DNA from: Candidatus Staskawiczbacteria bacterium RIFCSPHIGHO2_01_FULL_39_25
GTDB taxonomy: Bacteria > Patescibacteriota > Minisyncoccia > Minisyncoccales > Staskawiczbacteraceae
DNA length: 64,000 nucleotides
Direction of reading: 5' to 3'
Assembly: GCA_001820095.1 (NCBI GenBank)
Contig: MHOO01000003.1
Coordinates: forward strand, 987 to 64,986
Notes under the pieces: generated by a model
Databases searched by the model: none
What the model saw: the letters and a program-made list of their open reading frames with translations, nothing else
What the model was told of the DNA's origin: nothing
Translations under genes and position numbers: made by a program
In this document: positions 11,728 to 27,140 of the stretch, one piece after another
How positions within the stretch are numbered: position 1 is the stretch's first letter
Layout of the letters: each line of letters starts with the position of its first letter

Positions 11728-11808
11728 CAATTGACAATTGACAATTGACAATTGACAACGTTTTCTAAAATTCGTTGGTCAAATGTTAAATGTCAAAGGT
11801 CAAATGTA
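11728..11808. repeat. Heptamer-array hairpin, family A, (ACAATTG)n / (GTCAAAT)n, copy 1
   Basis: Begins at the nucleotide after the rpsS TAA. Four ACAATTG units, an acg...cgt loop, then a GTCAAAT-type right arm. Confidence 0.9.
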
Positions 11809-11811
11809 GTA

Positions 11812-12291
11812 ATGGAAGTAAAAGTTTCATTGAACAATTTAAGAACGGCGCCACGAAAGTCACGGGAAGTGGTTGATTTAATACGGAATAAAAATGTGGC
11901 ACAAGCTAGGAGCCTCCTTGAGTTTACGGTTAGAAGATCAGCAGAACCTATACTAAAGCTTTTAAATAGCGCGGCAGCTTCGGCAGTACATGATTTTAAA
12001 TTAGAAGAATCTAATTTATACATTTCTAAAGTAACCGTAGATGAGGGGCCGAAATTAAAAAGATGGCATCCTATGTCCCGAGGCAGAGCATATCCTATTA
12101 TCAAAAGAACGTCGCATATTACTCTGATATTGTCAGAGAAATCCGAAGACGGGAGTTTCGGCAGAGCCGAAAACTCTCGCGTCTCGCAAGCACGAAATCC
12201 GAAATCCGAAACCGCCCCAACATTAAAGATTGTTAAAAAAAGCAAGCCAAATCTAAAATCTAAAACCAAGAAAATTAAAAAAAATAAATAA
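11812..12291 (+). CDS. rplV: 50S ribosomal protein L22 with a C-terminal extension of about 50 aa that reads through a family C repeat arm
   Basis: MEVKVSLNNLRTAPRKSREVVDLIR...RTSHITLILSEK core, then SEDGSFGRAENSRVSQARNPKSE... encoded by repeat sequence. Confidence 0.92.
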   Translation: MEVKVSLNNLRTAPRKSREVVDLIRNKNVAQARSLLEFTVRRSAEPILKLLNSAAASAVHDFKLEESNLYISKVTVDEGPKLKRWHPMSRGRAYPIIKRTSHITLILSEKSEDGSFGRAENSRVSQARNPKSETAPTLKIVKKSKPNLKSKTKKIKKNK

Positions 12292-12352
12292 AATTCAAAA
12301 TATGTTTCGAATTTCGATATTCGGATTTCGAATTTCTTTTGCAAAGCAAAAG
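12137..12352. repeat. Heptamer-array hairpin element, family C, copy 2 (the left arm lies inside the rplV ORF)
   Basis: gcacgaaatccgaaatccgaaac (12189-12211) is complementary to gtttcgaatttcgatattcggatttcgaatttc. It ends in the mini-hairpin cttttgc-aaa-gcaaaag just before the rpsC ATG. Confidence 0.85.
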
Positions 12353-12354
12353 CT

Positions 12355-13029
12355 ATGACTCACAAGGTACATCCAAAAGCATTTAGAATAAAAGGAATGG
12401 AGGATTTCAATATCCGCGGTTTTTATGGCAATAAAATGCCTCAGTATTTAGAGGAAGACTTTTTAATTAAGGATTTTCTAAGGGATAAATTATCGGAAGC
12501 GTCGGTTGCAAATATAGAAATAGAGCATTCTGCAAGTAAATTGAATATTATTATTGAAACAGCAAGGCCAGGGCTGATTATAGGGCGAGGAGGAGAAGGA
12601 GTAGAAATATTAAAGAAAGCCATAGAGCAGAAATTAAAAAATTTGAGAAAAACAAGCATTGGGGCTGCGTTAAAGTCTCAGGTGGGGCAAGTAAAAATAG
12701 ATATTAAAGAAATTAAAAACCCGTGGATTTCTGCGATGCTGGTTGCCCAGATGGCTGCTCAGCAAATTGAAAAAAGGATTCCTTTCAGGCAAGTATTAAA
12801 AAGAAGCATAGAGCGGGTGATGCAGAATAAAGAAGTGAAAGGCATAAAAATGGAGGTCTCAGGAAGATTAAACGGCATTGAAATTGCACGAAAAGAATGG
12901 TTAAAGCAAGGCAGAATGCCCCTGCAAACCATACGGGCAGATATTGATTATGCCCAAACGGAAGCGTATTGCACCTATGGAGCCATTGGGGTAAAAGTAT
13001 GGCTATATAAAGGAGAAAAGTTTGAATAA
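12355..13029 (+). CDS. rpsC: 30S ribosomal protein S3
   Basis: KVHPKAFRI...RPGLIIGRGGEG...SGRLNGIEIAR. Confidence 0.96.
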   Translation: MTHKVHPKAFRIKGMEDFNIRGFYGNKMPQYLEEDFLIKDFLRDKLSEASVANIEIEHSASKLNIIIETARPGLIIGRGGEGVEILKKAIEQKLKNLRKTSIGAALKSQVGQVKIDIKEIKNPWISAMLVAQMAAQQIEKRIPFRQVLKRSIERVMQNKEVKGIKMEVSGRLNGIEIARKEWLKQGRMPLQTIRADIDYAQTEAYCTYGAIGVKVWLYKGEKFE

Positions 13030-13110
13030 CAATTGACAATTGACAATTGACAATTGACAACGGTGCATTTAGCTCGTTGGTCAAATGTTAAATGTTAAAA
13101 GTCAAATGTA
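13030..13110. repeat. Heptamer-array hairpin, family A, copy 2
   Basis: TAA|CAATTGACAATTGACAATTGACAATTGACAACG...GGTCAAATGTTAAATGTTAAAAGTCAAATG. Confidence 0.9.
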
Positions 13111-13124
13111 TAAGCATGAGCTTA

Positions 13125-13532
13125 ATGATGCCGAAAAAAGTAAAACACCGAAAGTGGCATAAGGGAAAGACTAAAGGCGTGGAAACAAGAGCAACGGAAT
13201 TGAATTTTGGTAGTTTTGGCTTAAAGGCAATGGGGACTAAATGGATAACCGCCCGCCAAATTGAATCAGCTCGGCGTTACATTATCAGATACATGAAAAA
13301 GGGAGGCAAGTTATGGGTAAGGATTTTCCCAGACAAGCCGGTAACTTCAAAAGGGGAAGAAGTGCCGTTGGGAGGAGGCAAAGGGGCGGTTCACCATTAT
13401 GTATACCCTATAAAACCAGGAAGAATGATTTTTGAAGTGGATGGATTAAAAGAGGAGGTGGCCAGGGAGGCCTTAGTGGGAGCCAGCATCAAGTTGCCAA
13501 TTAAGACAAAATTTGTTAAAAGAGAGAATTAA
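13125..13532 (+). CDS. rplP: 50S ribosomal protein L16
   Basis: MMPKKVKHRKWHKG...ITARQIESARR. The upstream ATGs lie in the repeat arm. Confidence 0.95.
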   Translation: MMPKKVKHRKWHKGKTKGVETRATELNFGSFGLKAMGTKWITARQIESARRYIIRYMKKGGKLWVRIFPDKPVTSKGEEVPLGGGKGAVHHYVYPIKPGRMIFEVDGLKEEVAREALVGASIKLPIKTKFVKREN

Positions 13533-13613
13533 CAAATTTTGTCCTTAAGACTAATTTGTTAAAAGAGAGAATTAACAAATTTTGTCCTTAAGACTAATTT
13601 GTTAAAAGAGAGC
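13511..13613. repeat. 43-bp tandem repeat, 2.4 copies; the first copy is the 3' end of rplP
   Basis: atttgttaaaagagagaattaacaaattttgtccttaagacta starts at 13511, 13554 and (partial) 13597. Each unit contains the 10-bp hairpin aatttgttaa/ttaacaaatt. Confidence 0.95.
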
Positions 13614-13721
13614 AGTAGGATAGTCTATAAAGCTTCTGCGTAGTTTAGCGTCAGTTTAGCGGAGACTCCGCAAAACCAACGCGAAACATAACGCAAAACA
13701 GACGCGAAAGAATTTACAAAA
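13614..13721. repeat. Imperfect hairpin of GCGT/ACGC-containing short units (rplP-rpmC spacer)
   Basis: tctgcgtagtttagcgtcagtttagcgga opposed to tccgcaaaaccaacgcgaaacataacgcaaaacagacgcga. Confidence 0.7.
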
Positions 13722-13913
13722 ATGAAAATTGACGAATTAAGGAAAAAAGATAAAAAAGAATTAGAAAAATCGGTACAAGACTTACAAAAAAAGTTAAGTG
13801 ATGTTAGGTTTAAATTTTCTTCAAATAAGTTAAAAAATGTAAAAGAAATTGCCCAAACAAAAAAAGAAATCGCAAGGATATTAACTATTATTAACGAGAA
13901 AAATTACCAATGA
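13722..13913 (+). CDS. rpmC: 50S ribosomal protein L29
   Basis: 63 aa; MKIDELRKKDKKELEKSVQDLQKKL..., at the operon position between L16 and S17. Confidence 0.9.
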   Translation: MKIDELRKKDKKELEKSVQDLQKKLSDVRFKFSSNKLKNVKEIAQTKKEIARILTIINEKNYQ

Positions 13914-14146
13914 GCAAGAAGAAATTAACAGGAATTGTGGTCTCTGATAAAATGCAAAAAACTGCTGTGGTTAAGGTAGAAAGAATTAAAGAACACCCTA
14001 AATATAAAAGAAGGTATAAAATCCATACCAAGTATAAGGCCCACGATGAAAATAAAGAATATAAAGTGGGAGATAAAGTGGTGATTGAGGAAACCGCGCC
14101 AATTAGTAAAGATAAAAAGTGGAAAGTAATTTCGAAAAACAATTGA
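13910..14146 (+). CDS. rpsQ: 30S ribosomal protein S17
   Basis: KKLTGIVVSDKMQKTAVVKVER...KYKAHDENKEYKVGDKVVIEE. The TGA stop lies inside the first unit of repeat A3. Confidence 0.93.
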   Translation: MSKKKLTGIVVSDKMQKTAVVKVERIKEHPKYKRRYKIHTKYKAHDENKEYKVGDKVVIEETAPISKDKKWKVISKNN

Positions 14147-14225
14147 CAATTGACAATTGACAATTGACAACGTTTTTAGCAAAAATTCGTTGGTTAAATG
14201 TCAAATGTCACATGTCAAATGTCAG
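14140..14225. repeat. Heptamer-array hairpin, family A, copy 3
   Basis: caattgacaattgacaattgacaattgacaacg...ggttaaatgtcaaatgtcacatgtcaaatgtca. Confidence 0.9.
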
Positions 14226-14228
14226 GTT

Positions 14229-14597
14229 ATGATACAGCCAAGGTCAATGTTAAAAGTTGCAGATAATAGCGGAGCAAAAATAATCCAGTGCATTAACGTG
14301 CCTGGCGGAACAAGGAAACGCTATGCCCAAATAGGAGATATTATTGTGGGGGCTGTGAAAAAAGCAGAGCCAAGAAAATTGGTAAAGAAGCATGAGGTGG
14401 TAAAAGCAGTTATTGTACGGCAAAGGAAAGAAATAAGAAGAATAGATGGTTCTTATATACGATTTGATGATAATGCCGTAGTAGTATTAGGAGAGGGAAA
14501 GTTGCCTAAGGGAGGAAGAGTATTTGGCCCCGTAGCAAAAGAGGTCAAAGATAAAGGTTTTGATAAAATAGCCATGATGGCAAGTGAGTTACTATAA
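14229..14597 (+). CDS. rplN: 50S ribosomal protein L14
   Basis: [17 protein letters not shown]...IRFDDNAVV. Confidence 0.96.
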
Positions 14598-14599
14598 AT

Positions 14600-14917
14600 A
14601 TGAAGGTAAAAAAAGGTGACAATGTATTAATAATTTCAGGCAAGGATAAGGGCAGGACTGCAAAGATCTTAAGATCTCTTCCAAAAGAGAGGATGATTTT
14701 AGTTGAAGGAATAAATTTGAAGAGCAAGCACGTTAGGCCGAAAAAACAGGGAGAAAAAGGGCAGGTAGTTAAGGTTCCCGCCTCAATCGATGTGTCAGAT
14801 GTGAAATTTATCTGTCCGAAATGCGGAAAAGCCGCAAGGCTTGGATATAAGATAGAAAGTTCACAAGACAGTATGAAAAAATTTAGAATTTGCAAAAAGT
14901 GCAATTCAGAAGTGTAA
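14600..14917 (+). CDS. rplX: 50S ribosomal protein L24 with a C-terminal CxxC...CxxC zinc-ribbon segment
   Basis: MKVKKGDNVLIISGKDKG... then CPKCG...CKKC. Confidence 0.92.
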   Translation: MKVKKGDNVLIISGKDKGRTAKILRSLPKERMILVEGINLKSKHVRPKKQGEKGQVVKVPASIDVSDVKFICPKCGKAARLGYKIESSQDSMKKFRICKKCNSEV

Positions 14918-14921
14918 AAAT

Positions 14922-15482
14922 ATGCAGAAATTAAAAGAAAAATATAATAAAGAAGTAGTGCCTTTGATGATGGAGAAATTCGGTTATAAAAATCCGATGG
15001 CGGTTCCTAAAATCACCAAAGTCACCCTTAATACTTCTTTTGGCAAGGAGATTGTAAATAAAACTTCCGGCGAACGTGATAAAATGCATGCTTTAGTATT
15101 GCAGGATATGGGTTTGATTGCAGGACAAAAGCCCCGATTGGTAAAATCAAAGAAATCAATTGCTGGATTCAAACTTCGTGAAAGTTTGGAAATTGCTGCG
15201 ATGGTAACCTTAAGGAAAGGCAGGATGTGGGATTTTTTAGAAAGGTTAATTTACCTTTCTTTGCCAAAGTCGCGAGATTTTAAAGGGCTTGAACCAAGAG
15301 GGGTAGATAATGGCGGCAATCTTAACATTGGATTTCGCGAACACATAAACTTTCCCGAGATTTTTACTGAAAAAGAAAAAACAATTCTTGGGCTGGAAGT
15401 TACGGTTTCTACTAATGCTAAGAAAAGGGAAGAAGGGTTAGAATTATTCAGGTTAATGGGATTCCCAATTAAAGAAAAGTAA
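14922..15482 (+). CDS. rplE: 50S ribosomal protein L5
   Basis: LKEKYNKEVVP...NPMAVPKITKVTLN...GNLNIGFREHINFPE. Confidence 0.96.
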   Translation: MQKLKEKYNKEVVPLMMEKFGYKNPMAVPKITKVTLNTSFGKEIVNKTSGERDKMHALVLQDMGLIAGQKPRLVKSKKSIAGFKLRESLEIAAMVTLRKGRMWDFLERLIYLSLPKSRDFKGLEPRGVDNGGNLNIGFREHINFPEIFTEKEKTILGLEVTVSTNAKKREEGLELFRLMGFPIKEK

Positions 15483-15566
15483 CAATTGACAATTGACAAT
15501 TAACAATTGACAACGTTTCGTAAGATTCATTATGTCAAATGTTAAATGTCACATGTTAAATGTCAG
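15483..15566. repeat. Heptamer-array hairpin, family A, copy 4
   Basis: TAA|CAATTGACAATTGACAATTAACAATTGACAACG...TATGTCAAATGTTAAATGTCACATGTTAAATGTCA. Confidence 0.9.
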
Positions 15567-15571
15567 GTAAC

Positions 15572-15757
15572 GTGGCTAAAACATCACAAATAGCAAGTGC
15601 AAAAAAGAAACCAAAATATTCTTCCAGATTAGTAAGACGCTGTTTTAAGTGCGGAAGGAGAAGGGGATTTATGAGGGCCTTTGGATTGTGCAGAATATGT
15701 TTTCGGGAATTAGCTAACAAAGGGGAGATACCGGGAATTAAGAAATCAAGCTGGTAA
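15572..15757 (+). CDS. rpsN: 30S ribosomal protein S14, zinc-binding type Z (61 aa from GTG 15572; ATG 15560 lies in the repeat arm)
   Basis: (M)[60 protein letters not shown]. Confidence 0.93.
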
Positions 15758-15759
15758 AA

Positions 15760-15870
15760 ACGTGAATCTAGAATCTGGTATCTTGTAGCTGGAATACCTG
15801 TCTGCGCAGGCAGGAAATAAAGGAATAACGAATTCAAGCTTCAAGATTCAAAATTCAAGATTCTCACTAA
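15760..15870. repeat. MITE-like palindromic element, family B, copy 5, with a GC-rich apical palindrome
   Basis: ACGTGAATCTAGAATCTGGTATCTTG...; apex cctgtctgcgcaggcagg at 15797-15814. Confidence 0.85.
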
Positions 15871-15872
15871 AA

Positions 15873-16262
15873 ATGACTGATCCAATCACGGACATGTTAA
15901 ATCAAATAAGGAACGCAGAAGCTGTCCAAAAGACAGAGGTTTTGCTGCCTTTCTCAAAATTAAAGAATGAGATTGCTAATATACTATCCCAGAATGGATT
16001 TATTGGAGAAGCAAAAAAAATTGCAAAAGGAAAGAATAAAACGCTGAAAATACATTTAAAGTATGAAAATGGGGTGCCGGCAATAGAGGGAGCCAAAAGA
16101 GTTTCAAAGCCCGGCCAACGGATTTACGTAAAATCAACTGATATTAAGAAAGTAAGGGGAGGGTTTGGTGTTGCAATTATTTCAACCCCAAAGGGATTAA
16201 TGACCAATAGCCAGGCAAGAAAGGCAAAACTAGGAGGAGAAGTTCTTTTAGAAGTTTGGTAG
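15873..16262 (+). CDS. rpsH: 30S ribosomal protein S8
   Basis: MTDPITDMLNQIRNA...GVAIISTPKGLMT. Confidence 0.96.
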   Translation: MTDPITDMLNQIRNAEAVQKTEVLLPFSKLKNEIANILSQNGFIGEAKKIAKGKNKTLKIHLKYENGVPAIEGAKRVSKPGQRIYVKSTDIKKVRGGFGVAIISTPKGLMTNSQARKAKLGGEVLLEVW

Positions 16263-16275
16263 GGCGCTTATAGGG

Positions 16276-16415
16276 CTTTTGCAGCGATTTTAAAAGTACC
16301 GATAGTCGTCCCGACCAGCGTCGGGACGCTATCTAAATTCTCGGCAGTTTATTCCGCTGAAGCGGAAACCATGCTAAACTGCCTGCGAAATTTACTTTTA
16401 AAATCGTTGCAAAAG
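16276..16415 (+). ncRNA. 140-nt multi-helix structured element, family G, copy 2 (rpsH-rplF spacer)
   Basis: Same helices and junctions as 9046-9185, but the hairpins are replaced with compensation: cgtcccgac-cagc-gtcgggacg and ttccgc-tgaa-gcggaa. Confidence 0.65.
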
Positions 16416-16500
16416 AAAAGATATTTCAGTTGTTAAGAATTTTGTAAAAAAAGAGCGCCGATGGATTTTCGACGGTAGCTAGGAAGAGTAGGTTTGAGAG

Positions 16501-16529
16501 TTGACGAAGCACTAAAAATAATATATAAT
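16501..16529 (+). promoter_or_regulatory. Candidate internal sigma70-type promoter upstream of rplF
   Basis: TTGACG (16501-16506), 17-nt spacer, TATAAT (16524-16529). Confidence 0.5.
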
Positions 16530-16585
16530 AATCAATCTATAAAGTCAATTTTTAAATCATAATTCATAAATCGTAAATCACGCAA

Positions 16586-17137
16586 ATGAGCCGAATCGGT
16601 AAAAAATTAATTGAAATTCCTTCTGCTGTAAAAGTGGAATTTGACGGCCAGAATGTGAAAGTTTCAGGGCCAAAAGGGGAATTAAAAACCATAATCCATC
16701 GCGATATTAAAGCGGAAGCGAAAGATGGCAAGATTTTTGTATCCCCTAAAAGCAAGGATGCATCTAATAAGGTGAGAGGATTATGGGGCCTGTACCGGGC
16801 ATTAATTTTTAATATGATACAAGGGGTGGAAAAAGGCTTTGAAAAGAAACTGGAAATTGAGGGTGTTGGTTATAAAGCGGCAGTGCAGGGAGATGAATTG
16901 GTGTTGAACCTTGGATTTGTGAATCCGGTTAAAATTAAAAAGCCCGAAGGAATTACCTTTGCTGTTGAAAAAAATCTTATTACTATTTCAGGAATTAATA
17001 AAGAAGCTGTTGGACAAATTGCCGCAGAAATACGGGCAACTAAAAAAGCAGAGCCATATAAAGGCAAAGGCATTAAATACCAGGGAGAAAGGATTAGGAG
17101 AAAAGAAGGAAAGAAGGTAGTCGCCGCCAAGAAATAG
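16586..17137 (+). CDS. rplF: 50S ribosomal protein L6
   Basis: MSRIGKKLIEIPSAVKVEFDGQNVKVSGPKGEL. Confidence 0.96.
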   Translation: MSRIGKKLIEIPSAVKVEFDGQNVKVSGPKGELKTIIHRDIKAEAKDGKIFVSPKSKDASNKVRGLWGLYRALIFNMIQGVEKGFEKKLEIEGVGYKAAVQGDELVLNLGFVNPVKIKKPEGITFAVEKNLITISGINKEAVGQIAAEIRATKKAEPYKGKGIKYQGERIRRKEGKKVVAAKK

Positions 17138-17248
17138 GAATCTAGATTCTTGTATCTTGAAGCTAGAATACAAAAAAACAAGAGTAGGATTTAGAAATTC
17201 AATATTCAAAATTCTATTCAAGATACCAGATACAAGACTCAAGATTCA
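17138..17248. repeat. MITE-like palindromic element, family B, copy 6
   Basis: ggaatctagattcttgtatcttgaagctagaat...attcaagataccagatacaagactcaagattc. Confidence 0.85.
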
Positions 17249-17256
17249 TTTTGACT

Positions 17257-17598: not shown

Positions 17599-17615
17599 TA
17601 AACTTAAAATTTCAA

Positions 17616-17703
17616 AACGAATTTCCACAAAAAAACGAATTTTCACGAATAAACGAATTCGTGATTCGTGTGGATTCGTTAGTAAATTCGTGGTAATTCG
17701 TTA
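17616..17703. repeat. Imperfect hairpin of CGAAT/ATTCG units (rplR-rpsE spacer)
   Basis: aaacgaatttccac...aaacgaatt | cgtgattcgtgtggattcgtt...aattcgtt. Confidence 0.75.
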
Positions 17704-17709
17704 AAACAA

Positions 17710-18252
17710 ATGGCAGAAGATACAACAATAAAAAAACCACAGGAATTAGAAAAAGCTTCTCAAAAAGATGATGGCTTTAGGCCGGTCAGAAAGTTTGGTT
17801 CGCGTCCAGGTGCCCCAAAAGATGATTTTGAAACTAAGCTTTTGGATTTAGCAAGGGTTACCAGAGTTACCGGTGGCGGAAAAAGGATGAGTTTTAGGGC
17901 GGTTGTCGTAGCAGGAGATAAAAAAAGCAAAATTGGCATTGGCATAGATAAGGGGAAAGACGTATCCCAGGCAATAGAAAAAGCAACGAGCAGGGCTAAG
18001 AAAAATTTGATTACGGTGGTTATCGTAAATGGAACGATTCCCCACCAAGTGCAGGCAAAAGTAGGACCTGCGGTAATACTATTAAAACCCCAGAGAAAAG
18101 GCAGGGGCCTGGTGGCCGGGGGAGCTGTAAGGGTTATTTGTGACCTAGCAGGCATAAAAAACGTTTCTTCAAAAATTCTTTCTGGATCAAAAAATAAGCT
18201 TAACAATGCGCGGGCAACCATGGAAGCATTGCGCAAGCTAAAAGCTCGCTAA
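17710..18252 (+). CDS. rpsE: 30S ribosomal protein S5
   Basis: RVTRVTGGGKRMSFRAVVVAGD...GRGLVAGGAVR. Confidence 0.95.
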   Translation: MAEDTTIKKPQELEKASQKDDGFRPVRKFGSRPGAPKDDFETKLLDLARVTRVTGGGKRMSFRAVVVAGDKKSKIGIGIDKGKDVSQAIEKATSRAKKNLITVVIVNGTIPHQVQAKVGPAVILLKPQRKGRGLVAGGAVRVICDLAGIKNVSSKILSGSKNKLNNARATMEALRKLKAR

Positions 18253-18330
18253 CAATTGACCATTAACATGTGACCATTGACTGACGACGTCGCGATTGGT
18301 CAATTGTTAATTGTCAAATGTCAATTGTCA
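18253..18330. repeat. Heptamer-array hairpin, family A variant (CCATTGA units), copy 5; it fills the position where rpmD (L30) normally sits
   Basis: TAA|CAATTGACCATTAACATGTGACCATTGAC...GGTCAATTGTTAATTGTCAAATGTCAATTGTCA. Confidence 0.85.
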
Positions 18331-18334
18331 TATT

Positions 18335-18766
18335 ATGCAGATACATCAATTACAACCTATCCATAGCTCCAAGAACAGGAAACGGGTTGGCCGAGGAGGC
18401 AAGAAAGGCACGTATTCTGGAAAAGGAGGGAAGGGCCAAACCGCAAGAGCTGGCAGAAAACTGGCGCCTATTATCAGGGAGCTTATTAAAAGGTATCCAA
18501 AGCTAAAAGGATATCGCAGGTTTGTTTTGGAAAATAATTCAACGGTAGTAAATCTAGACATGCTTAATAAGCATTTCAAAGATGGAGAAGTTGTAAATCC
18601 AGCAAATTTGATTACAAAGGGAATAGTACATATGATAAAAGGCAAAGTTGGAGAGGTGAAGATTCTTGGAAAGGGCGTGTTGGATAAAAAGCTAACTATT
18701 GAAAACTGCAAGGTTTCAGAAACTGCAAAAAAAGCCATTGAAAAAGCGGGCGGCACCGTGAAATAA
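18335..18766 (+). CDS. rplO: 50S ribosomal protein L15
   Basis: MQIHQLQPIHSSKNRKRVGRGGKKGTYSGKGGKGQ. Confidence 0.94.
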   Translation: MQIHQLQPIHSSKNRKRVGRGGKKGTYSGKGGKGQTARAGRKLAPIIRELIKRYPKLKGYRRFVLENNSTVVNLDMLNKHFKDGEVVNPANLITKGIVHMIKGKVGEVKILGKGVLDKKLTIENCKVSETAKKAIEKAGGTVK

Positions 18767-18843
18767 CAATTTACCATTGACATTTGACCATTGACAGCAA
18801 CTTGCGGTTGGTCAATTGTTAATTGTTAAATGTTAATTGTTAA
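18766..18843. repeat. Heptamer-array hairpin, family A variant, copy 6
   Basis: TAA|CAATTTACCATTGACATTTGACCATTGACAGC...GGTCAATTGTTAATTGTTAAATGTTAATTGTTAA. Confidence 0.85.
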
Positions 18844-18846
18844 ACT

Positions 18847-20124
18847 ATGTGGTACGAAAAGATATTACTATTTTTCAAAAATAAAGAACTAAGGAATAAA
18901 TTTCTTTTTGTTTTTGGTCTTTTTTTAGTTTTTAGGATAGCAGCTAATGTTCCCATCCCGGGAATTGGCGTAGAAAATTTAAGAAAATTCTTTGCTGAAA
19001 ACCAGGTATTCGGCCTTTTGAATATATTCTCTGGCGGGGCGTTAAGCAACTTTTCAATTGTGCTGCTCGGCCTAGGCCCTTACATTACTGCTACTATTAT
19101 TTTGCAATTGCTAACCATGGTTTTCCCTGCGTTGGAAAAAATGTATAAAGAAGAAGGAGAAGCAGGCCGGCAGAAATTCAACCAATACGGCAGGCTCTTA
19201 ACTATTCCTTTGGCAGTATTTGAAGGATATGGGATGTTAACGCTCTTTCAGCGACAAGGGGTTATTAGCGCTTTATCACCGGAAATTCTCGTTAGTTCCA
19301 TTATCACTATTGTAGCTGGATCCATGTTTTTAATGTGGATTGGAGAAATTATCACTGAGCAGGGCATAGGAAACGGAATTTCACTGTTAATTTTCGCCGG
19401 TATCGTAGCAAGGCTGCCAATCAATATTTTCCAAACGTTTGTAAGCTGGGATCCATCTAAAATCCCTTCTTATATTTTGTTCTTTGCCTTATCTATCTTG
19501 ATTATTGCAGGGGTAGTACTAATTACCGAAGCCCGCAGGAATATACCGGTCTCATATGCAAAGCGGGTTAGGGGGTCAAAAATGTATGGCGGAGTTTCTA
19601 CGTATCTTCCTTTAAATGTGAACCCCGCAGGAGTTATCCCTATTATCTTTGCTCTTTCCATTCTTCTGTTTCCTAGCATGGTTGCCGGATTTTTTGGGAC
19701 GGTTCCCGGCATGGTGGGAGATGCAGCAAATGCCGTGGCGGCTTTTTTCAATAACCAATGGGTTAACGGTATATTTTACTTTATATTAGTTATTATGTTC
19801 ACCTATTTTTATACTGCTGTCACCTTTAATCCGCAAACTATTGCTGAAAACTTGCAGAAAATGGGCGGATTTATTCCAGGAGTAAGGCCCGGCAGATCAA
19901 CATCTGAATTTTTAAAACATATTTTAAACAGGGTATTATTTACGGGCGCCTTATCTCTTGGGCTCATTGCTGTGTTGCCAAATATTGTTGCGGGCATTAC
20001 CGAGGTTACTAGTTTTACCTTTTTAATTGGAGGCACGTCACTATTAATTATTGTAAGCGTGGTATTGGAAACCATGAGGCAGATCAACGCGCAATTACAG
20101 ATGCGGGAATACGACACTTTTTAA
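18847..20124 (+). CDS. secY: Preprotein translocase subunit SecY
   Basis: 425 aa, 10 TM helices; GIGNGISLLIFAGI, at the operon position after rplO. Confidence 0.97.
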   Translation: MWYEKILLFFKNKELRNKFLFVFGLFLVFRIAANVPIPGIGVENLRKFFAENQVFGLLNIFSGGALSNFSIVLLGLGPYITATIILQLLTMVFPALEKMYKEEGEAGRQKFNQYGRLLTIPLAVFEGYGMLTLFQRQGVISALSPEILVSSIITIVAGSMFLMWIGEIITEQGIGNGISLLIFAGIVARLPINIFQTFVSWDPSKIPSYILFFALSILIIAGVVLITEARRNIPVSYAKRVRGSKMYGGVSTYLPLNVNPAGVIPIIFALSILLFPSMVAGFFGTVPGMVGDAANAVAAFFNNQWVNGIFYFILVIMFTYFYTAVTFNPQTIAENLQKMGGFIPGVRPGRSTSEFLKHILNRVLFTGALSLGLIAVLPNIVAGITEVTSFTFLIGGTSLLIIVSVVLETMRQINAQLQMREYDTF

Positions 20125-20139: not shown

Positions 20140-20222
20140 AAAAGTGAATTTTCAATTTTTCCCGCAAGGCGGGATCCCGTTTGCGGGAAAATTTTCAATC
20201 AATTTTCAATTACTTAATTTTC
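20140..20222. repeat. AATTTTC-unit low-complexity element (E-like) with two GC hairpins
   Basis: gaattttcaattttt-cccgcaaggcggg-atcccgtttgcggga-aaattttcaatcaattttcaatt. Confidence 0.75.
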
Positions 20223-20291: not shown

Positions 20292-20299
20292 GGTTGAAT

Positions 20300-21013
20300 A
20301 TGTCAAAGCAAGTTATTATTTTATTCGGGCCGCCGGGGGCGGGAAAAGGCACGCAGTCAGAGCTCTTATCTGAAAAGATGGGGCTGTATTTATTTGAGAC
20401 CAGCAAAATTCTAGAAAAGGAGTTTAAAAAAGCAGAAGATATGCCAGGAGATTCCCCTGAACGGTTTGTAGAAATTGAAGGCGAAAAATTTGATGTATTA
20501 AATGAAAAAGAAATTTGGAAAAAAGGGGAATTATGCAGTCCGCCGTGGGTAACCTATCTTACGATGAAAGAGTTTAAACGATTACATGATGATGGCGATA
20601 ATTTAATTATTGCGGGATCTCCAAGAACCGTTTACGAAGCCGAACGGGAGATGCCTCTTTTGGCTGAATTATATGGCAAGGAACATATAAAAATAGTACT
20701 AATAGAAATTTCAGCGGATGTAACGGTATTCAGGAACACGCATAGGAAGATTTGCGAGTTAATGCGCCACTCTATTTTATTTAATAAAGAAACCGAAACG
20801 CTGACGATTTGCCCTTTAGACGGTTCTAAATTAATGAAACGCAAAGATCTAGATGATCCCGAAACCATAAAAACAAGGCTTGAACAATATAAAGCAAGAA
20901 CCCTGCCGTTATTCAATTATTTTAAAGAGAATAATTTTAACGTCCATAAAATCAATGGAGAGGGAAGTGTGGCAAAGGTGCATGAAGAAATACTGCGAAT
21001 AGTGGAAGTGTGA
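20300..21013 (+). CDS. adk: Adenylate kinase (long form)
   Basis: MSKQVIILFGPPGAGKGTQ P-loop. The TGA stop is part of the GTGAAT terminus of repeat B7. Confidence 0.85.
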   Translation: MSKQVIILFGPPGAGKGTQSELLSEKMGLYLFETSKILEKEFKKAEDMPGDSPERFVEIEGEKFDVLNEKEIWKKGELCSPPWVTYLTMKEFKRLHDDGDNLIIAGSPRTVYEAEREMPLLAELYGKEHIKIVLIEISADVTVFRNTHRKICELMRHSILFNKETETLTICPLDGSKLMKRKDLDDPETIKTRLEQYKARTLPLFNYFKENNFNVHKINGEGSVAKVHEEILRIVEV

Positions 21014-21146
21014 ATATAGAATCTCATATCTTGAATCTGGAATACCTGCCTGCGCAGGCAGGGAATAAAAGAATACTGAATGTAAAAATTCACATTCTAA
21101 ATTCATTATTCAATTCAAGCTACAAGATACAAAATTCAAGATTCAA
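21009..21146. repeat. MITE-like palindromic element, family B, copy 7, with a GC-rich apical palindrome
   Basis: GTGTGAATATAGAATCTCATATCTTG...; apex cctgcctgcgcaggcagg at 21045-21062. Confidence 0.85.
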
Positions 21147-21151
21147 TTTAG

Positions 21152-21898: not shown

Positions 21899-21902
21899 TG
21901 GG

Positions 21903-21929
21903 ACCACCTTTATTTGAAGGTGGTTTTTT
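21903..21929 (+). terminator. Rho-independent terminator after map
   Basis: accacctt-tatttg-aaggtggt followed by tttttt. Confidence 0.7.
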
Positions 21930-21943
21930 GTTACAATAAAGTC

Positions 21944-22687
21944 ATGAAACTCATTGTCGCAAATTGGAAGATGAATCCGGAAAGCGCTCAAAAGGCAACT
22001 GAGCTTTTTGAAGCTGTGAAAAATGGCGTTATAGATACTAAAAACGTTGAAGTGGTTATCTGTCCTCCGTTTGTATATTTGCCGTTATTTTCCGGATTGA
22101 CGCTGGGCGCGCAGAATGTTTTTTTCAAAGAAAAAGGGGCATTTACCGGAGAAGTTTCTCCTGTCATGCTTAAGGATTTAAAAGTGCAATATGTGATTAT
22201 AGGGCATTCAGAAGCCAGAAAGCATTTGAATGAAACCGATGAAATAATCAATAAGAAAGTTAAAGAATGCCTCTTAGTAGGCTTAACGCCAATTCTGTGC
22301 ATCGGGGAAACAATAGAAGAAAAAGAATCAGGCAGGAAAGAAGAAGTGTTAAAAAAGCAAATAACCGAAGGATTAGCCGGAGTGTCAAATGTTAATGGTC
22401 AAATGTCAAATGTAATTATCGCCTATGAGCCGGTATGGGCTATTGGCACCGGGCATAGTTGTTCTTCGGAAGAAACGCAAGAAATGGTGTCAGCCATAAG
22501 AGAAATTATTACAGATTTATATGAGAAAGAATTATCAGATACGATGAGAATTCTGTATGGGGGAAGCGTGGATAGCAAAAATTCAAATTCATATTTAGCT
22601 ATTTCGGGGCTTAGTGGGCTTTTAATTGGATCAGATTCTTTAGATGCCCAGGATTTTATTAAAATAGTAGCGTCAGCTGGCATTTGA
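21944..22687 (+). CDS. tpiA: Triosephosphate isomerase
   Basis: MKLIVANWKMN...IGHSEAR...IAYEPVWAIGTG. Contains the in-frame repeat-derived segment VSNVNGQMSNV. Confidence 0.93.
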   Translation: MKLIVANWKMNPESAQKATELFEAVKNGVIDTKNVEVVICPPFVYLPLFSGLTLGAQNVFFKEKGAFTGEVSPVMLKDLKVQYVIIGHSEARKHLNETDEIINKKVKECLLVGLTPILCIGETIEEKESGRKEEVLKKQITEGLAGVSNVNGQMSNVIIAYEPVWAIGTGHSCSSEETQEMVSAIREIITDLYEKELSDTMRILYGGSVDSKNSNSYLAISGLSGLLIGSDSLDAQDFIKIVASAGI

Positions 22688-22718
22688 CAAATCTTTAGAT
22701 TGCCGTAGTATTAGTGCA

Positions 22719-23246
22719 ATGAGTGAAGAAATTAAAAACGGGCAATTTTTCAGCCCCAGTAAGGGAAATTTAGCATTTAACGAAGTTATAAAAGAAATTT
22801 ATAATTATATTTCGGCTGAACCGGAATTTTTTTATGATATTATAGTAGGATGCGATTCGCCTTCTTCTGACAAGCCATTTTTTCCTATTGCTATTGTAGT
22901 ATTGAGAACGGGAGCTGGCGGCAGGTTCTTTTTGAAAAAAATGCATTACCCCGATGCTTATTTAAAAAGGTTTATGCACATTAATTGGAAGCAGCGGATT
23001 TTGCAAGAAGTGTATTTATCGTGCGAATTAGCCCTCTTGCTGCGGGAAACTTTGGAAAGGGAATTTGGAAAAGCAACTCCTACATTTAACTATCAATTTC
23101 AGTACATTCATGCTGATGTTGGCGAACAGGGAAAAACCAAAGAAATGGTAAAAGAAGTGGTTGGGTTAATCAAGAGCAACGGATTTGAACCCATGATAAA
23201 GCCACATTCTTTTGCGGCGTCAGTAGTGGCTGATAGATACACGTAA
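22719..23246 (+). CDS. Hypothetical protein, possibly YkuK/DUF458-like (RNase H-like fold)
   Basis: 175 aa; pattern YDIIVGCDSPSS...PIAIVVLRTGAGGRFF resembles DUF458. Assigned from memory only. Confidence 0.45.
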   Translation: MSEEIKNGQFFSPSKGNLAFNEVIKEIYNYISAEPEFFYDIIVGCDSPSSDKPFFPIAIVVLRTGAGGRFFLKKMHYPDAYLKRFMHINWKQRILQEVYLSCELALLLRETLEREFGKATPTFNYQFQYIHADVGEQGKTKEMVKEVVGLIKSNGFEPMIKPHSFAASVVADRYT

Positions 23247-23327
23247 TGAATTTAAAATTTGTACTTGAGCTTGCTCAAGGAGCTTGCGCTCTAATTTACA
23301 ATTTGAAATTACTGAATTTTAAAAAAG

Positions 23328-23351
23328 AAACGCCGGAAAGCCGGCGTTTTA
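23328..23351 (+). terminator. Rho-independent terminator
   Basis: aaacgccgg-aaag-ccggcgtttt. Confidence 0.7.
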
Positions 23352-23383
23352 CGTTAAAGAAAATTGTGATATAATTCCATATT

Positions 23384-25090
23384 ATGCAGTCGTATGAATT
23401 ACGTCAAAAGTTTCTGGGTTTTTTCGAGAAACATGGACATAAAATAGTGCCCAGTTCTTCGCTATTGCCTACCGACCCTTCGGTGCTGTTTACTACTGCC
23501 GGAATGCAACAATTCAAACCATATTACACTGGTGAAGCTGATGCTATGGCAGATTTCGGCTCTTTGAATACTGTTTCAATCCAAAAATCAATGCGCACAT
23601 CTGATATTGATGAAGTGGGCGACGATACGCATGATACGTTTTTTGAAATGCTTGGAAATTTCAGTTTTGGTGGATATTGGAAGAAGGAAGCTATTGAATA
23701 TGCTCATGAGTTTATAACTAAAATCGTAGGCTTAGAAATTTCTTATGTTACAGTTTTTAAGGGATCTGATGTTGTTCCAAAGGATAAAGAATCTAAAGAA
23801 ATCTGGAAATCTTTAGGTATTTCTGATGTACGTGAAGAGGGCATGGAAGACGTTTTCTGGGGTCCAACGGGAAGTAATGGTCCGTGCGGTCCTACTACTG
23901 AAATTTATTGCAAAAATGCCAATGGTAAGGATGTAGAAATTTGGAATATTGTGTTCAATGAATTTTTTTGCGATGGTTCACGTGAACAATTATTAGAAGG
24001 AATTGCAAAGTTTACTCCACTTGGTAAAAAGGGGATTGATACGGGCATGGGCTTGGAGCGTCTTGCCATGATAGCTCAAAAAACATCAAACATTTTTGAT
24101 ACCGATTTATTTTCACCGATTATGCGTACTATTCCCGATGTTGAATTACGAATTAAACGAATTATTGCCGATCATTTTCGTTCGTCAGTCTTTTTAATTT
24201 CTGATGGAGTATTACCTTCTAATAAAGACCAAGGCTATATTTTGCGCCGTCTCCTGCGTCGGGCCATGACATATGCAAAAATCAATGGCTTCCCCAAAGA
24301 GGGACCTGCCGATTTAATTCATGCCATTATTGATGTATATAAGGCACAATATCGGGAGCTTGATTCAAATCGCATGAAGATCATAGATATGGTTTATGAA
24401 GAAAGAGAAAAGTTTGGGGCAACTGTAGAAAAAGGGCTAAAAGAGTTAGAGAAAATGCAAAAAATTGATGCAAAAAATGCTTTCTTTCTCTATCAAACTT
24501 TTGGTGTTCCATTTGATATTATTAAAGAGCTGCGTGCAAAAGATCTTAATCAAGGAGCCTTTGAAGATGAATTAAAAAAGCATCAAGAGCTTTCGCGTAC
24601 GGCATCAGCTGGAATGTTTAAGGGGGGATTAGCCGACCATGATCCAAAAACCATTAAATTACACACAGCGCACCATTTGCTTTTGGCGGTGCTTGGAGAG
24701 TTATTTGGCAAGACAGTAAAGCAAAAAGGGAGTAATATTAACCAAGAACGCTTAAGGATTGATTTTTCTTTTGATAGAAAATTAACCGATGAGGAAAAAA
24801 AGAAAATTGAAGCCAGGGTGAATGAAAAAATACAGGAAGGGCTTTTAGTCGTAAAACGGGAAATGCCTAAAGAAGAAGCCGAAAAAATTGGAGCAGAAAT
24901 GGAATTTGGTGTAAAATACGGTAATACGGTATTAGTGTATTTTATTGAAGATAAAAAAGGAAATGTTTTTAGCAAAGAATTTTGCGGAGGCCCTCATGTG
25001 AGCAACACCTCCGAATTAGGAAAGTTTAAGATTATGAAAGAAGAAGCTGTCAGTGCGGGAGTAAGAAGGATTAAAGCAACCCTAGAATAA
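23384..25090 (+). CDS. alaS: Alanyl-tRNA synthetase, short form (568 aa; ends after the editing core, no C-Ala domain)
   Basis: LFTTAGMQQFKPYY, FEMLGNFSFGGY, GMGLERL, HTAHHLL...CGGPHV. Confidence 0.9.
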   Translation: MQSYELRQKFLGFFEKHGHKIVPSSSLLPTDPSVLFTTAGMQQFKPYYTGEADAMADFGSLNTVSIQKSMRTSDIDEVGDDTHDTFFEMLGNFSFGGYWKKEAIEYAHEFITKIVGLEISYVTVFKGSDVVPKDKESKEIWKSLGISDVREEGMEDVFWGPTGSNGPCGPTTEIYCKNANGKDVEIWNIVFNEFFCDGSREQLLEGIAKFTPLGKKGIDTGMGLERLAMIAQKTSNIFDTDLFSPIMRTIPDVELRIKRIIADHFRSSVFLISDGVLPSNKDQGYILRRLLRRAMTYAKINGFPKEGPADLIHAIIDVYKAQYRELDSNRMKIIDMVYEEREKFGATVEKGLKELEKMQKIDAKNAFFLYQTFGVPFDIIKELRAKDLNQGAFEDELKKHQELSRTASAGMFKGGLADHDPKTIKLHTAHHLLLAVLGELFGKTVKQKGSNINQERLRIDFSFDRKLTDEEKKKIEARVNEKIQEGLLVVKREMPKEEAEKIGAEMEFGVKYGNTVLVYFIEDKKGNVFSKEFCGGPHVSNTSELGKFKIMKEEAVSAGVRRIKATLE

Positions 25091-25205
25091 ATCCGAAGCA
25101 CGAAATCCGAAATCCGAAACAAACCTGAATTTTCAAAACATAAAAATTCAAAACTTGTTTCGAATTTCGAGATTCGGATTTCGAATTTCTTTTACGAAGT
25201 AAAAG
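25088..25205. repeat. Heptamer-array hairpin element, family C, copy 3
   Basis: TAA|ATCCGAAGCACGAAATCCGAAATCCGAAAC...GTTTCGAATTTCGAGATTCGGATTTCGAATTTC, then the mini-hairpin cttttac-gaa-gtaaaag. Confidence 0.85.
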
Positions 25206-25209
25206 CAAT

Positions 25210-26487
25210 ATGGCTAAAAAGATCTACGATATTTTACCGCCCAATAAAGTAAACAAACCGAAAGAAGCGGTCAATATTTTTATTGATCATAAAAAGAAAA
25301 GAACCAGAAAAGCACTTGAGCAGCCCCAACCTATAAAAAAGCGTTTTGCATTGAAGGAAATTTTGGTTGGGGGAGGGATTATTGTTTTCTTATGCGGAAT
25401 TTATCTATATAATGTTTTGCAGAGCGTTCAGGTGGAAATTTTGCCAAAACTAGAAGTATTGGCTTTGTCAGAAAAAGTCATGGCAGACATATCAGTCAAA
25501 GAAGTTGATATTGCTAAAAAAATGATTCCCGCTCAGTATTTTTCAGAAGAAAAGAGCGGTTCGCGGGAATTTGACGCAACGGGAAGCGCCTCAAATGAAG
25601 GCAAGGCTACAGGCACCATAAAAATTTATAATAAAATCAGCCCGTCAACGCCTTTTGTGCTTAAGGCGGGAACCCATTTCTTATCTGATTCGGGCAAATA
25701 TTTTGTTACCTTGGAAAGGCTTACTATTCCTGCCGGACAAAAAAATGCGCCGGGGTCCATAAGCGCCAAGGTGCAAGCCGAAGAATCCGGGAAAGAGTAT
25801 AATATCGGGCCTTCTAAGTTTTCTGTTCCGAAGTTATCTGGCACTGAATACTATTATAGTATCTGGGGTGAATCTACGAGCGCTATGACGGGGGGGTATG
25901 CGGGAACAGTAAAAAAAGTAACCGGCGATGATATTTCCCAGGCAAAAGAAGCCCTTACGAAAGAATTGCTAGCCGAAGCAATCGCATCGCTGAAAAATAA
26001 ACTTTCCGCAGAGGACGTTTTATTGGATAACGCTTTAGTAAGCGAAGTTGTTGAAGCTACTTCTAACGTAAACCAAAATACGGTCGTAGAAAAATTTACT
26101 GAACAGGCAAGAGTAAAAGTTTCAGCGTTGGTTTTCAAAAAGCATGATGTGGAAAAGTTTGTCAAAAGTATTGCGGCAGATAATCTGCCGGAAGAAAAAG
26201 ATTTCTTGGAAAAAACCTTAGATATTGCCTATGAACTAGAGTCAGCGGATATGAAAAAAGGGCTGGAAGTTCTTAATTTACAAGCATCGATTCAAACATA
26301 TTACAGGATAGAAACTACGGACTTAATTGATTTATTTGCTTCTAAATCAGCTGAGCAAATAAAACAAATTGTTGTTTCTAGGTATTCTGATAAAATCTCT
26401 GAAACAAAAGTTAAATTCTGGCCGTTTTGGGTGAATAAGGCCCCTAAGGACAAAGATAAAATTAACATCAATTTAAATTTTCAGTAG
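25210..26487 (+). CDS. Hypothetical membrane-anchored protein
   Basis: 425-aa ORF with one N-terminal TM helix (ILVGGGIIVFLCGIYLY); no recognisable motif. Confidence 0.6.
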   Translation: MAKKIYDILPPNKVNKPKEAVNIFIDHKKKRTRKALEQPQPIKKRFALKEILVGGGIIVFLCGIYLYNVLQSVQVEILPKLEVLALSEKVMADISVKEVDIAKKMIPAQYFSEEKSGSREFDATGSASNEGKATGTIKIYNKISPSTPFVLKAGTHFLSDSGKYFVTLERLTIPAGQKNAPGSISAKVQAEESGKEYNIGPSKFSVPKLSGTEYYYSIWGESTSAMTGGYAGTVKKVTGDDISQAKEALTKELLAEAIASLKNKLSAEDVLLDNALVSEVVEATSNVNQNTVVEKFTEQARVKVSALVFKKHDVEKFVKSIAADNLPEEKDFLEKTLDIAYELESADMKKGLEVLNLQASIQTYYRIETTDLIDLFASKSAEQIKQIVVSRYSDKISETKVKFWPFWVNKAPKDKDKININLNFQ

Positions 26488-26516
26488 ATCGTACCTGCTG
26501 TAACTGTGAACATATG

Positions 26517-26545
26517 CCCGCGCTAATAGGCGCGGGTTCTATTTT
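26517..26545 (+). terminator. Rho-independent terminator
   Basis: cccgcgc-taatag-gcgcggg followed by ttctatttt. Confidence 0.65.
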
Positions 26546-26556
26546 GAAGGGAAGTG

Positions 26557-26585
26557 TTGACTAAAAAAGATATATTTGTTAGTAT
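26557..26585 (+). promoter_or_regulatory. Candidate promoter of the infA-rpmJ-rpsM unit
   Basis: TTGACT (26557-26562), 17-nt spacer, TAGTAT (26580-26585). Confidence 0.45.
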
Positions 26586-26598
26586 TTATATTACATAA

Positions 26599-26847
26599 AT
26601 GAATCAAAACGAAGGTACCAATAGCGACCAAAATAGCAAGAAAATTATAAAATGCGAAGGTGTTGTTATGGAGGCTTTGCCAAACGCCTTTTTTAGGGTA
26701 TTATTAAGCGACGGCAGAGAGATTATAGGATTTTTATCGGGTAAAATGAGGCTTAATAAAATCAAGATTTTAACGGGCGATAAGGTAACCATAGAAATGA
26801 CGCCCTATGACGAGAAGAAAGGAAGGATAGTGTATAGGCTAAAATAG
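26599..26847 (+). CDS. infA: Translation initiation factor IF-1
   Basis: [52 protein letters not shown]. Confidence 0.93.
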
Positions 26848-26850
26848 CCA

Positions 26851-26933
26851 ACAATTGACCATTGACAATTAACCATTGACAACGTTTTTAAAAATTCGTT
26901 ATGTCAAATGTTAAATGTCACATGTCAAATGTT
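26851..26933. repeat. Heptamer-array hairpin, family A, copy 7
   Basis: acaattgaccattgacaattaaccattgacaacg-tttttaaaaatt-cgttatgtcaaatgttaaatgtcacatgtcaaatgtt. Confidence 0.9.
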
Positions 26934-26938
26934 ATATT

Positions 26939-27055
26939 ATGAAGGTCAGGCCATCAATAAAAAAAATTTGCAATGACTGCCAGATTGTAAAAAGAGAGGG
27001 AAATTTATACGTTATTTGCAAAAAAAATCCAAAACATAAACAACGCCAAGGCTAA
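26939..27055 (+). CDS. rpmJ: 50S ribosomal protein L36 (38 aa; below the ORF-track cutoff)
   Basis: Own translation: [38 protein letters not shown]. Confidence 0.9.
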
Positions 27056-27140
27056 CCATTGACCATTGACAATTGACCATTGACAACGTTTTTAAAAATT
27101 CGTTATGTCAAATGTCAAATGTCAAATGTCAAATGTCAAA
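27055..27140. repeat. Heptamer-array hairpin, family A, copy 8
   Basis: TAA|CCATTGACCATTGACAATTGACCATTGACAACG-TTTTTAAAAATT-CGTTATGTCAAATGTCAAATGTCAAATGTCAAATGTCAAA. Confidence 0.9.

Follow-up and report, generated by a model that had tools for sequence, protein, structure and literature searches.

Heptad-armed foldback hairpins between stop and start codons in the ribosomal-protein operon of a Staskawiczbacteria genome

Introduction

Heptanucleotide repeats are over-represented in bacteria, as established by Mrazek (2007) according to its citation in PMC4679880, and repeats of this length have been described next to stop codons. MacGregor (2015; PMC4679880) reported TAACTGA direct repeats in Beggiatoaceae, Cyanobacteria and Bacteroidetes that carry stops in three frames. 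These repeats overlap upstream stop codons, mostly end a few nucleotides ahead of the next start, usually without a ribosome-binding site, and occur in ribosomal-protein operons with variable copy number; a role in translational regulation was proposed (PMC4679880). In Xanthomonas, Rehm et al. (2015; PMC4692102) described GGGAATC heptamers that form 70–75 convergent pairs able to fold into stem-loops, preferentially between co-oriented open reading frames (ORFs) and at most 50 bp from a stop codon or overlapping it. Here we analyze a stretch of 64,000 nucleotides from Candidatus Staskawiczbacteria bacterium RIFCSPHIGHO2_01_FULL_39_25 (contig MHOO01000003.1, positions 987 to 64,986; the whole stretch is called the window below, and positions are counted from its first letter) and, within it, Family A, a hairpin with arms of tandem heptanucleotides that recurs between the genes of the ribosomal-protein operon.

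Earlier publications already cover heptamers with stops in every frame as well as inverted pairs of heptamers located between co-oriented ORFs. With the TAACTGA repeats, Family A shares the 7-nucleotide unit, stops in all frames that confine its overlap to ORF ends, ends close to start codons and residence in ribosomal-protein operons. However, the TAACTGA repeats are direct arrays, with one inverted case reported, whereas Family A consists of two inverted arrays that make up an 80–90-nt hairpin with a shared loop; its heptad is CAATTGA/GTCAAAT and its host is a bacterium of the Candidate Phyla Radiation (CPR). Like the GGGAATC pairs, Family A is made of inverted heptameric simple sequence repeats (SSRs) between co-oriented ORFs and close to stops, but the GGGAATC repeats are G-rich, quadruplex-prone and found in high-GC genomes, and neither a nucleotide-exact stop/start geometry nor a link to translational coupling has been described for them. 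The geometry of Family A is that of the phage f1 gene pair VII/IX, in which the end of a long hairpin closely precedes the downstream start and coupling needs the stop to reach the hairpin (PMC12548453); for f1 this was shown experimentally, at one gene pair, whereas for Family A it is read from sequence only.

Repetitive extragenic palindromic (REP) sequences and REPINs (PMC3116915) resemble Family A in being short, multi-copy, extragenic imperfect palindromes that form part of operon transcripts and differ in their presence between relatives. Unlike these sequences and unlike MITEs (miniature inverted-repeat transposable elements), Family A has arms of tandem heptads that slip by whole units. 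Among the bacterial MITEs, Correia, ERIC, BOX, RUP and Nezha are comparable elements. The eukaryotic Foldback elements have inverted arms of short tandem repeats at the kilobase scale; the likeness to Family A is one of resemblance only, as size, host domain and repeat periods all differ. Family A unites these known traits in the genome of a CPR bacterium; its geometry is exact to the nucleotide, and empty sites provide clear controls.

Results

Nine copies of Family A in the window

The + strand of the window carries the str/S10/spc/alpha run of ribosomal-protein genes. We surveyed the 64-kb window and added ~10 kb beyond the window end on one side. A first-pass annotation of this DNA had listed nine hairpins; all nine were found, all on the + strand and in the sense of the genes. 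Shuffled sequences gave an expectation of zero matches for the degenerate arm patterns, which matched only at the nine copies and at a solo arm within tpiA. A profile of the nine copies returned exactly nine full matches in the window with nhmmer, scoring 63–80 bits in sense and 30–44 bits in antisense. A tenth copy lies in the same genome, 7.6 kb beyond the window end and directly before rpmG (locus L253, 18490–18576). The copies and the solo arm are:

Copy 1, 11728–11811, + strand: rpsS-rplV junction; rpsS TAA ends at 11727, rplV ATG at 11812; folding energy -29.8, z -6.5
Copy 2, 13030–13115, + strand: rpsC-rplP junction; TAA ends at 13029, rplP ATG (MSLMMPKK) at 13116
Copy 3, 14140–14228, + strand: rpsQ-rplN junction; the rpsQ stop is the first TGA (14144–14146), rplN ATG (MIQPRS) at 14229
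Copy 4, 15483–15571, + strand: rplE-rpsN junction; TAA ends at 15482, rpsN GTG at 15572
Copy 5, 18253–18334, + strand: rpsE-rplO junction, CCATTGA/CAATTGT variant with a different loop; TAA ends at 18252, rplO ATG at 18335
Copy 6, 18767–18846, + strand: rplO-secY junction, variant arms with a different loop; TAA ends at 18766, secY ATG at 18847
Copy 7, 26852–26938, + strand: infA-rpmJ junction; infA TAG ends at 26847, followed by CCAA; rpmJ ATG (MKVRPS) at 26939
Copy 8, 27056–27142, + strand: rpmJ-rpsM junction; TAA ends at 27055, rpsM GTG (MPRIAGV) at 27143
Copy 9, 37214–37295, + strand: 118 nt after frr, directly upstream of an M50 peptidase gene with a likely GTG start at 37296
Solo array, 22384–22415, + strand: right-arm type (GTCAAAT-like, four units) inside tpiA, translated as SNVNGQMSNV

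Each element is ~80–90 nt long. The arms start with AACAATTGAC. The left arm holds ~4.5 units of CAATTGA (variants CCATTGA, CAATTAA and CATGTGA), the right arm four to five units of GTCAAAT (variants GTTAAAT and GTCAATT), and the apical part 12–23 nt. The loop, AACG-T5..A5TT-CGTT, had been called conserved; this holds for about five to six of the nine copies, and other loops are found in copies 5, 6 and 9 (18253, 18766 and 37213 in the first-pass numbering). Tandem Repeats Finder reported a period of 7 with 3.9–5.1 repeat copies per arm in all nine elements, as in heptanucleotide SSRs of at least three head-to-tail units, and the terminal inverted repeats, small size and multiple copies (nine plus one) are those of a MITE. 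Each of the nine copies in the window is directly preceded by AA. The AT-rich stems are followed by CAnnnT and then the start codon, which a T precedes in 8 of the 10 copies. Similarity is highest between neighbors, with 94% identity between copies 7 and 8 and variant arms shared by copies 5 and 6, which suggests local spread. The solo array in tpiA has no stops, is in frame and sits within a loop of variable length among relatives.

Family A is aligned with stops and starts to the nucleotide

In six copies, at rpsS, rpsC, rplE, rpsE, rplO and rpmJ, the CAATTG or CCATTG of the element follows TAA without a gap, and the stop of rpsQ is a TGA inside the first heptad, both as first described. Taken over the eight junction copies, the stem starts -3 to +2 nt from the end of the stop codon, and the start codon follows 4–8 nt beyond the stem. 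We do not regard a preference for TAA as a signal, since TAA is the usual stop here (21 of 30 genes). The expectation that the left arm halts a ribosome in any frame agrees with the sequences, in which TGA or TAA closes all three frames in 9 of 9 copies.

The first-pass annotation had further proposed that the right arm presents ATG in every frame and so offers an AUG on exit. The first part is true of the idealized repeat and of five of the nine copies, but the other four have ATG in two frames (two copies) or one (two copies); six of the nine have an in-frame, open ATG in the arm. The second part found no support. We set downstream starts by matching N-termini to orthologues of relatives with unambiguous tight junctions, and none of the starts supported in this way is an arm ATG: three of the nine are GTG, and all lie outside the stem. 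Public and metagenome gene calls pick an arm ATG for rplN (14205), for rpsM (27119) and for the SecY of a related locus, L250 (10001), and the N-terminal extensions that result (for example MSHVKCQV and MSNVKCQT) have no counterpart among orthologues. The true starts do keep a fixed distance from the right arm, a point on which a check had been suggested: counted from the arm's last TGT, the start codon is exactly 6 nt away in 8 of 10 copies, and 4 and 8 nt away in the remaining two, with variable sequence in this spacer. Upstream of the 30 genes examined (window positions 9000–30200) we found no Shine-Dalgarno (SD)-like motif; the leaders are A/T-rich. By position, the copies therefore resemble coupling hairpins, with the stop in or at the stem and the downstream start just beyond it.

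Predicted structure

Each copy is predicted to fold into one hairpin of ~30 pairs (-24.6 to -30.2 kcal/mol; z from -3.0 to -6.5 against dinucleotide shuffles), the two convergent arrays being able to pair as in paired inverted SSRs. The stems are imperfect: a single mismatch in every heptad, A.A or, for the CCATTGA variants, C.U, separates helices of 5–6 bp. The final bases of the upstream stop codon form part of the first helix. In all minimum-free-energy and centroid folds, the downstream start and the 4–8 nt before it are unpaired. The arm ATGs are base-paired.

We also asked what the fold says about the level at which the structure acts. A comparison of sense and antisense folding was discarded as a sign of RNA-level structure, since the energies are similar and antisense folds better in three copies. 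Covariation is minimal: pairs are kept mainly through sequence identity, only two apical positions change on both sides, and one position has A-U beside G-U/G-C. Among the stem pair cells, G.U outnumbers A.C by 11 to 3. Rfam 15 at gathering score recovered only four tRNAs in the window and no family for Family A. Intrinsic terminators were rejected as an identity for the hairpins, the AT-rich stems having no U tract; no Family A copy was among the terminator-like sites, and such sites are not enriched. A sigma-70 promoter built on the TTGACA of the left arm was likewise rejected, with 65 promoter-like sites against 53 ± 8 in shuffles and a 10/12 match in only one Family A copy.

Relatives have empty junctions and close strains differ by whole units

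SecY, coded at 18847–20124, is identical to a protein assigned at NCBI to Candidatus Staskawiczbacteria (Parcubacteria, CPR) and has more than 100 homologues with 82–87% identity from that group, and we obtained the operon of relatives via these homologues (related loci L126–L129 and L250–L252). Five metagenome contigs, L001–L005, are 99.7–100% identical to the window. The related locus L250, whose SecY is 87% identical, comes from an ANAN16-series sample, as does the window-strain contig L003.

At the sites occupied by Family A in the window, L126, L129 and L251 have spacers of 0–22 nt without SD motifs, such as TAA-T-ATG at rpsE-rplO, TAA-TT-ATG at rplE-rpsN and an overlapping TGATG at rpsQ-rplN. 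The C-termini and stop positions of the upstream genes are the same as in the window, with the one exception that rpsQ has an extra residue in the window. The Family A profile found no match in the seven related loci. Because the junctions of relatives are empty and the profile has no match there, the Family A copies are recent lineage-specific insertions into ancestrally tiny stop-start spacers without SD motifs. Such empty sites among relatives are a trait of MITEs, and the tight, empty state of the same sites fits the option of neutral insertion that had been raised for these elements.

Close strains differ inside the arms. Contig L001, 99.96% identical to the window over 21 kb, has lost one TTGACAA unit from the left arm of copy 2, and its only other difference is a single substitution in the left arm of copy 4. 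Unit number is thus polymorphic between close strains, as in SSRs, and the whole-unit, 7-nt change between near-identical strains indicates slippage. Other strain differences include a 33-nt deletion in the repeat-filled rpsM-rpsK spacer and the absence, in L003, of one unit of a 43-nt tandem repeat at 13501–13612 (2.6 copies, 97% match) that overlaps the end of rplP and the rplP-rpmC spacer. L002, L004 and L005 also show from a few to ~15 small differences each, which in L004 and L005 cluster at contig ends.

Unrelated heptad families share the geometry

At least six further families of heptad-armed hairpins fill most of the other gene junctions of the window, with units GAATCTA/G, CGAATTT/CGAAATC, AATTTTC, TAATTAG, AATTTGA and ACATAAC/CATGTTC. 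Their sites are:

Family B: 6540–6660, 9889–9965, 11275–11390, 15760–15870, 17138–17250, 21010–21150, 35380–35500, 50005–50120
Family C: 1975–2115, 12191–12340, 25091–25190
Family D: 20150–20215, 27533–27640, 34336–34370, 40840–40925
Family E: 2295–2430, 41400–41550
Family F: 50800–50950, 51864–51910
A further heptad-arm hairpin, given no letter: 36455–36545

Families B to F behave at junctions as Family A does. The stem of Family B begins -3 to 4 nt past the stop and ends 5–13 nt ahead of the start, and of the two gaps the 5' one is the smaller in 13 of 13 Family A and B junctions. In L250 nearly all junctions are filled, with hairpins built from different heptads (CGAATAA, TAGAAAA and ACATAAC/CATGTTC among them), and L251 and L127 have a few further hairpin families at some junctions, those of L251 (TAGCGTA/TAGGGTT and CTTCAAG-type) being heptad-built. 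The hairpins of all three loci begin 0–5 nt past the stop and end a few nucleotides ahead of the start. Because Families B–F and the families of relatives do likewise, the order of stop, stem and start is not a property of the Family A sequence, to which it had been attributed. Nor do stops in the left arm seem to be necessary. The left arm of one Family C copy ((CGAAATC), 12191–12291) is free of stops in every frame and falls within rplV, where it is read through and encodes ...ARNPKSET... of the Lys-rich C-terminal tail of L22; the right arm lies beyond the stop.

Copies elsewhere

We searched species-representative genomes with the left-arm pattern and metagenome contigs with the two-arm pattern, and the counts that follow are among the matches listed. 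Matches to the left-arm pattern are mostly generic (CAATTGA)n or (CCATTGA)n arrays, some of them in hairpins, from Cyanobacteria, Bacteroidota, Planctomycetota, Chloroflexota and other phyla, so that the heptad itself is cosmopolitan; this genome is not among the matches listed. Non-redundant low-GC loci of the A type comprise 11 in sense between co-directional genes and 4 in antisense; in these four, the TAA of the gene abuts the gene-proximal arm. In the independent metagenome copies, the upstream stop lies -8 to +7 nt from the arm in 11 of 12 and starts lie 4–9 nt downstream, which bears out the preference for stops over the interruption of ORFs. A-type copies also occupy ribosomal-protein junctions of other CPR bacteria (rplW-rplB in L203, rpsL-rpsG in L152 and rpsQ-rplN in L135), and the host of the rpsQ-rplN copy is a distant CPR organism.

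Other elements in the window and related loci

Two further kinds of structured element stand at junctions of the operon. One, of ~160–170 nt and highly structured, occurs in two copies (9031–9200 and 16263–16430) directly after the TAG of rplC and of rpsH. The whole spacers fold at -83 and -105 kcal/mol and the copies are 83% identical, with two internal stem-loops fully compensated: GAAATTGC/GCAATTTC vs GTCCCGAC/GTCGGGAC in the first, and GCGCCGCC/GGCGGCG vs ATTCCGC/GCGGAA in the second. This element has no match in Rfam even at E ≤ 1. The other is a non-heptad hairpin repeat of relatives, with GC-rich stems (ACCCGCC...GGGCGGGT or CCCCGCCCTC...GAGGGCGGGG) and a conserved 3' tail, approximately TTCGCT[TA]CG[CT]T.ATAAAn-ATC, that ends directly at ATG. 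It stands at the rpsQ-rplN, rpsE-rplO and rplO-secY junctions, at the following sites:

L127: 5153–5277, 9264–9378
L251: 5069–5171, 9337–9429
L126: 9898–10000

Of the sigma-70-like matches in the operon, the best (TTGACG, 17 nt, TATAAT) is at 16501–16529, in the 323-nt rpsH-rplF spacer, and may be an internal promoter. On the - strand, at 54226–57380, a gene for an AlwI-family restriction endonuclease adjoins one for a DNA methylase fused to LexA-like DNA-binding and S24 peptidase domains; nearby are a pair formed by a helix-turn-helix protein and an M78 (IrrE-like) peptidase, and a small HNH protein. At 17890–18490 of L253, ~7 kb beyond the window end, a tRNA gene is apparently split by an insert of ~190 nt (5' half at ~18219–18252, 3' half at ~18451–18486), with ~300 nt of GC-rich, structured non-coding sequence upstream and the tenth Family A copy next downstream.

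Discussion

We take Family A to be one of several strain-specific families of small foldback repeats whose arms are heptanucleotide SSR arrays. Probably these are selfish or neutral foldback SSRs, and the stop, hairpin, start geometry would be the mark of a survivorship filter and not of design, with coupling preserved; it is the selfish or neutral nature, the filter and the coupling steps that we infer. The 5' arm carries a TGA every 7 nt, in all frames, and an insertion would therefore persist only at the end of an ORF, which would be clipped at, or ahead of, the first in-frame TGA of that arm. The inserted 85 nt would fold into a single hairpin whose base contains or touches the stop, with the next start unpaired 4–8 nt past the stem. 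Stop and start would in this way be kept juxtaposed, as in the 0–12-nt spacer of the ancestor, and the ancestral junctions look like classic coupling junctions. A terminating ribosome would melt the base of the stem and free the region upstream of the next start, so that coupling, of an RNA-unfolding type, would survive. Copies with a stem offset from the stop, or with a buried start, would starve an essential downstream ribosomal-protein gene and be lost. The ATGs of the right arm would be a by-product of the heptad sequence.

Several observations weigh against this account. We found no transposase or other mobilizing gene among 30 window proteins (Pfam) or in the adjoining 10 kb, and no exact direct repeat of the flanks in the nine copies. 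The constant 6-nt spacing between stem and start is tighter than insertion after a stop with retention of a 0–22-nt spacer predicts, a hint that the geometry of initiation is under active selection or that the target lies close to the start. The copies at 37214 and in L253 have no adjacent upstream ORF and keep their start spacing. Finally, gene-sense orientation is found in 9 of 9 copies in the window and in 11 vs 4 of the independent loci among the matches listed, a bias that a purely DNA-level parasite need not show. As to known classes, we rejected TAA or TA as a target duplication, since TAA lies 0–4 nt from the right arm in only four of nine copies and at varying offsets; Family A lacks the target-site duplication expected of a classical MITE. 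REP/REPIN identity was rejected as well: there is no GTAG/CGTC head, and no Y1 transposase/RAYT among the window proteins.

The spacing and orientation could instead reflect an active translational device, a hairpin selected to join stop and start and to gate the downstream start. Either the same ribosome, or a 30S subunit recruited when the stem base melts, would re-initiate across ~85 nt, in a shunt or coupling module that works without SD motifs. Besides a start exactly 6 nt past the final TGT in 8 of 10 copies, across a spacer of variable sequence, this would account for the stop in or at the first helix in an operon with SD motifs at 0 of 30 genes, for the gene-sense bias and for the copies that stand just before a start without an upstream ORF; heptamer repeats near starts in ribosomal-protein operons have also been proposed as translational regulators (PMC4679880). 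However, close relatives run the same operon without hairpins at these junctions, and the device is therefore not required; the copies are strain-specific and differ in unit number between strains; unrelated families yield the same geometry, as a filter predicts; and both strands fold equally well, with minimal covariation. We regard such a device as unlikely. A broader form of the idea, to which we give somewhat less credence still, is that heptad hairpins as a class are a genuine translational module of SD-less CPR operons, in which shunt-like re-initiation, or else coupling at a strict 1:1 ratio, would carry the terminating ribosome over ~85 nt from a stop at the 5' base to a start 6 nt past the 3' base. 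Unit slippage could then tune or phase-vary coupling, and new families would keep emerging, since a heptad array able to pair with itself is all that is needed.

Stems of ~30 pairs at -25 to -30 kcal/mol, between cistrons and in the sense of the transcript, might also act in mRNA processing or stability, as a cleavage site for a double-strand RNase or a barrier to exonucleases (3' and 5') that segments the ribosomal-protein mRNA as REP and Correia elements do. REP hairpins within operons reportedly stabilize upstream mRNA and, when ~15 nt or less from the stop, are said to affect translation (Liang and Deutscher, in 2015), and the excess of G.U over A.C cells is compatible with constraint on the sense RNA. 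We consider a processing role improbable: the hairpins are not conserved across relatives, a mismatch every 7 bp makes a poor RNase III substrate, and the fixed start spacing is left unexplained.

Most doubtful is a site-specific, non-autonomous mobile DNA whose transposase is encoded at another place (a hairpin-recognizing single-strand Y1 type, for example) and which inserts 3' of a short sequence, AA^T or TAA, with abutment then a reflection of target choice and not of selection; the AA left flank in nine of nine copies, the T before the start in 8 of 10, the single orientation in the window, the discrete arm length of ~4.5 units, the shared loops, the likeness of neighbors and the empty sites of relatives would all suit it, but there is no transposase in the 64-kb window or the added 10 kb and no exact duplication of a target, stops are abutted equally by families whose termini are unrelated and which would each need the same target, and AA^T is too common in a genome of 38% GC to explain the placement without selection.

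The genomes of CPR bacteria are minimal, and the usual description is that they contain little mobile DNA; here nearly every junction of the most essential operon is filled by repeats of 80–140 nt, with nucleotide-level regularity. In practical terms, gene callers put starts inside the right arm, which produces false N-terminal extensions. If the hairpins are indeed foldback SSRs kept by a survivorship filter, as we think probable, hairpin-filled and hairpin-free relatives would amount to a natural experiment on coupling without SD motifs and on the structure that is tolerated at a stop-start junction, and also on the origin and spread of heptanucleotide repeats, which are over-represented yet unexplained.

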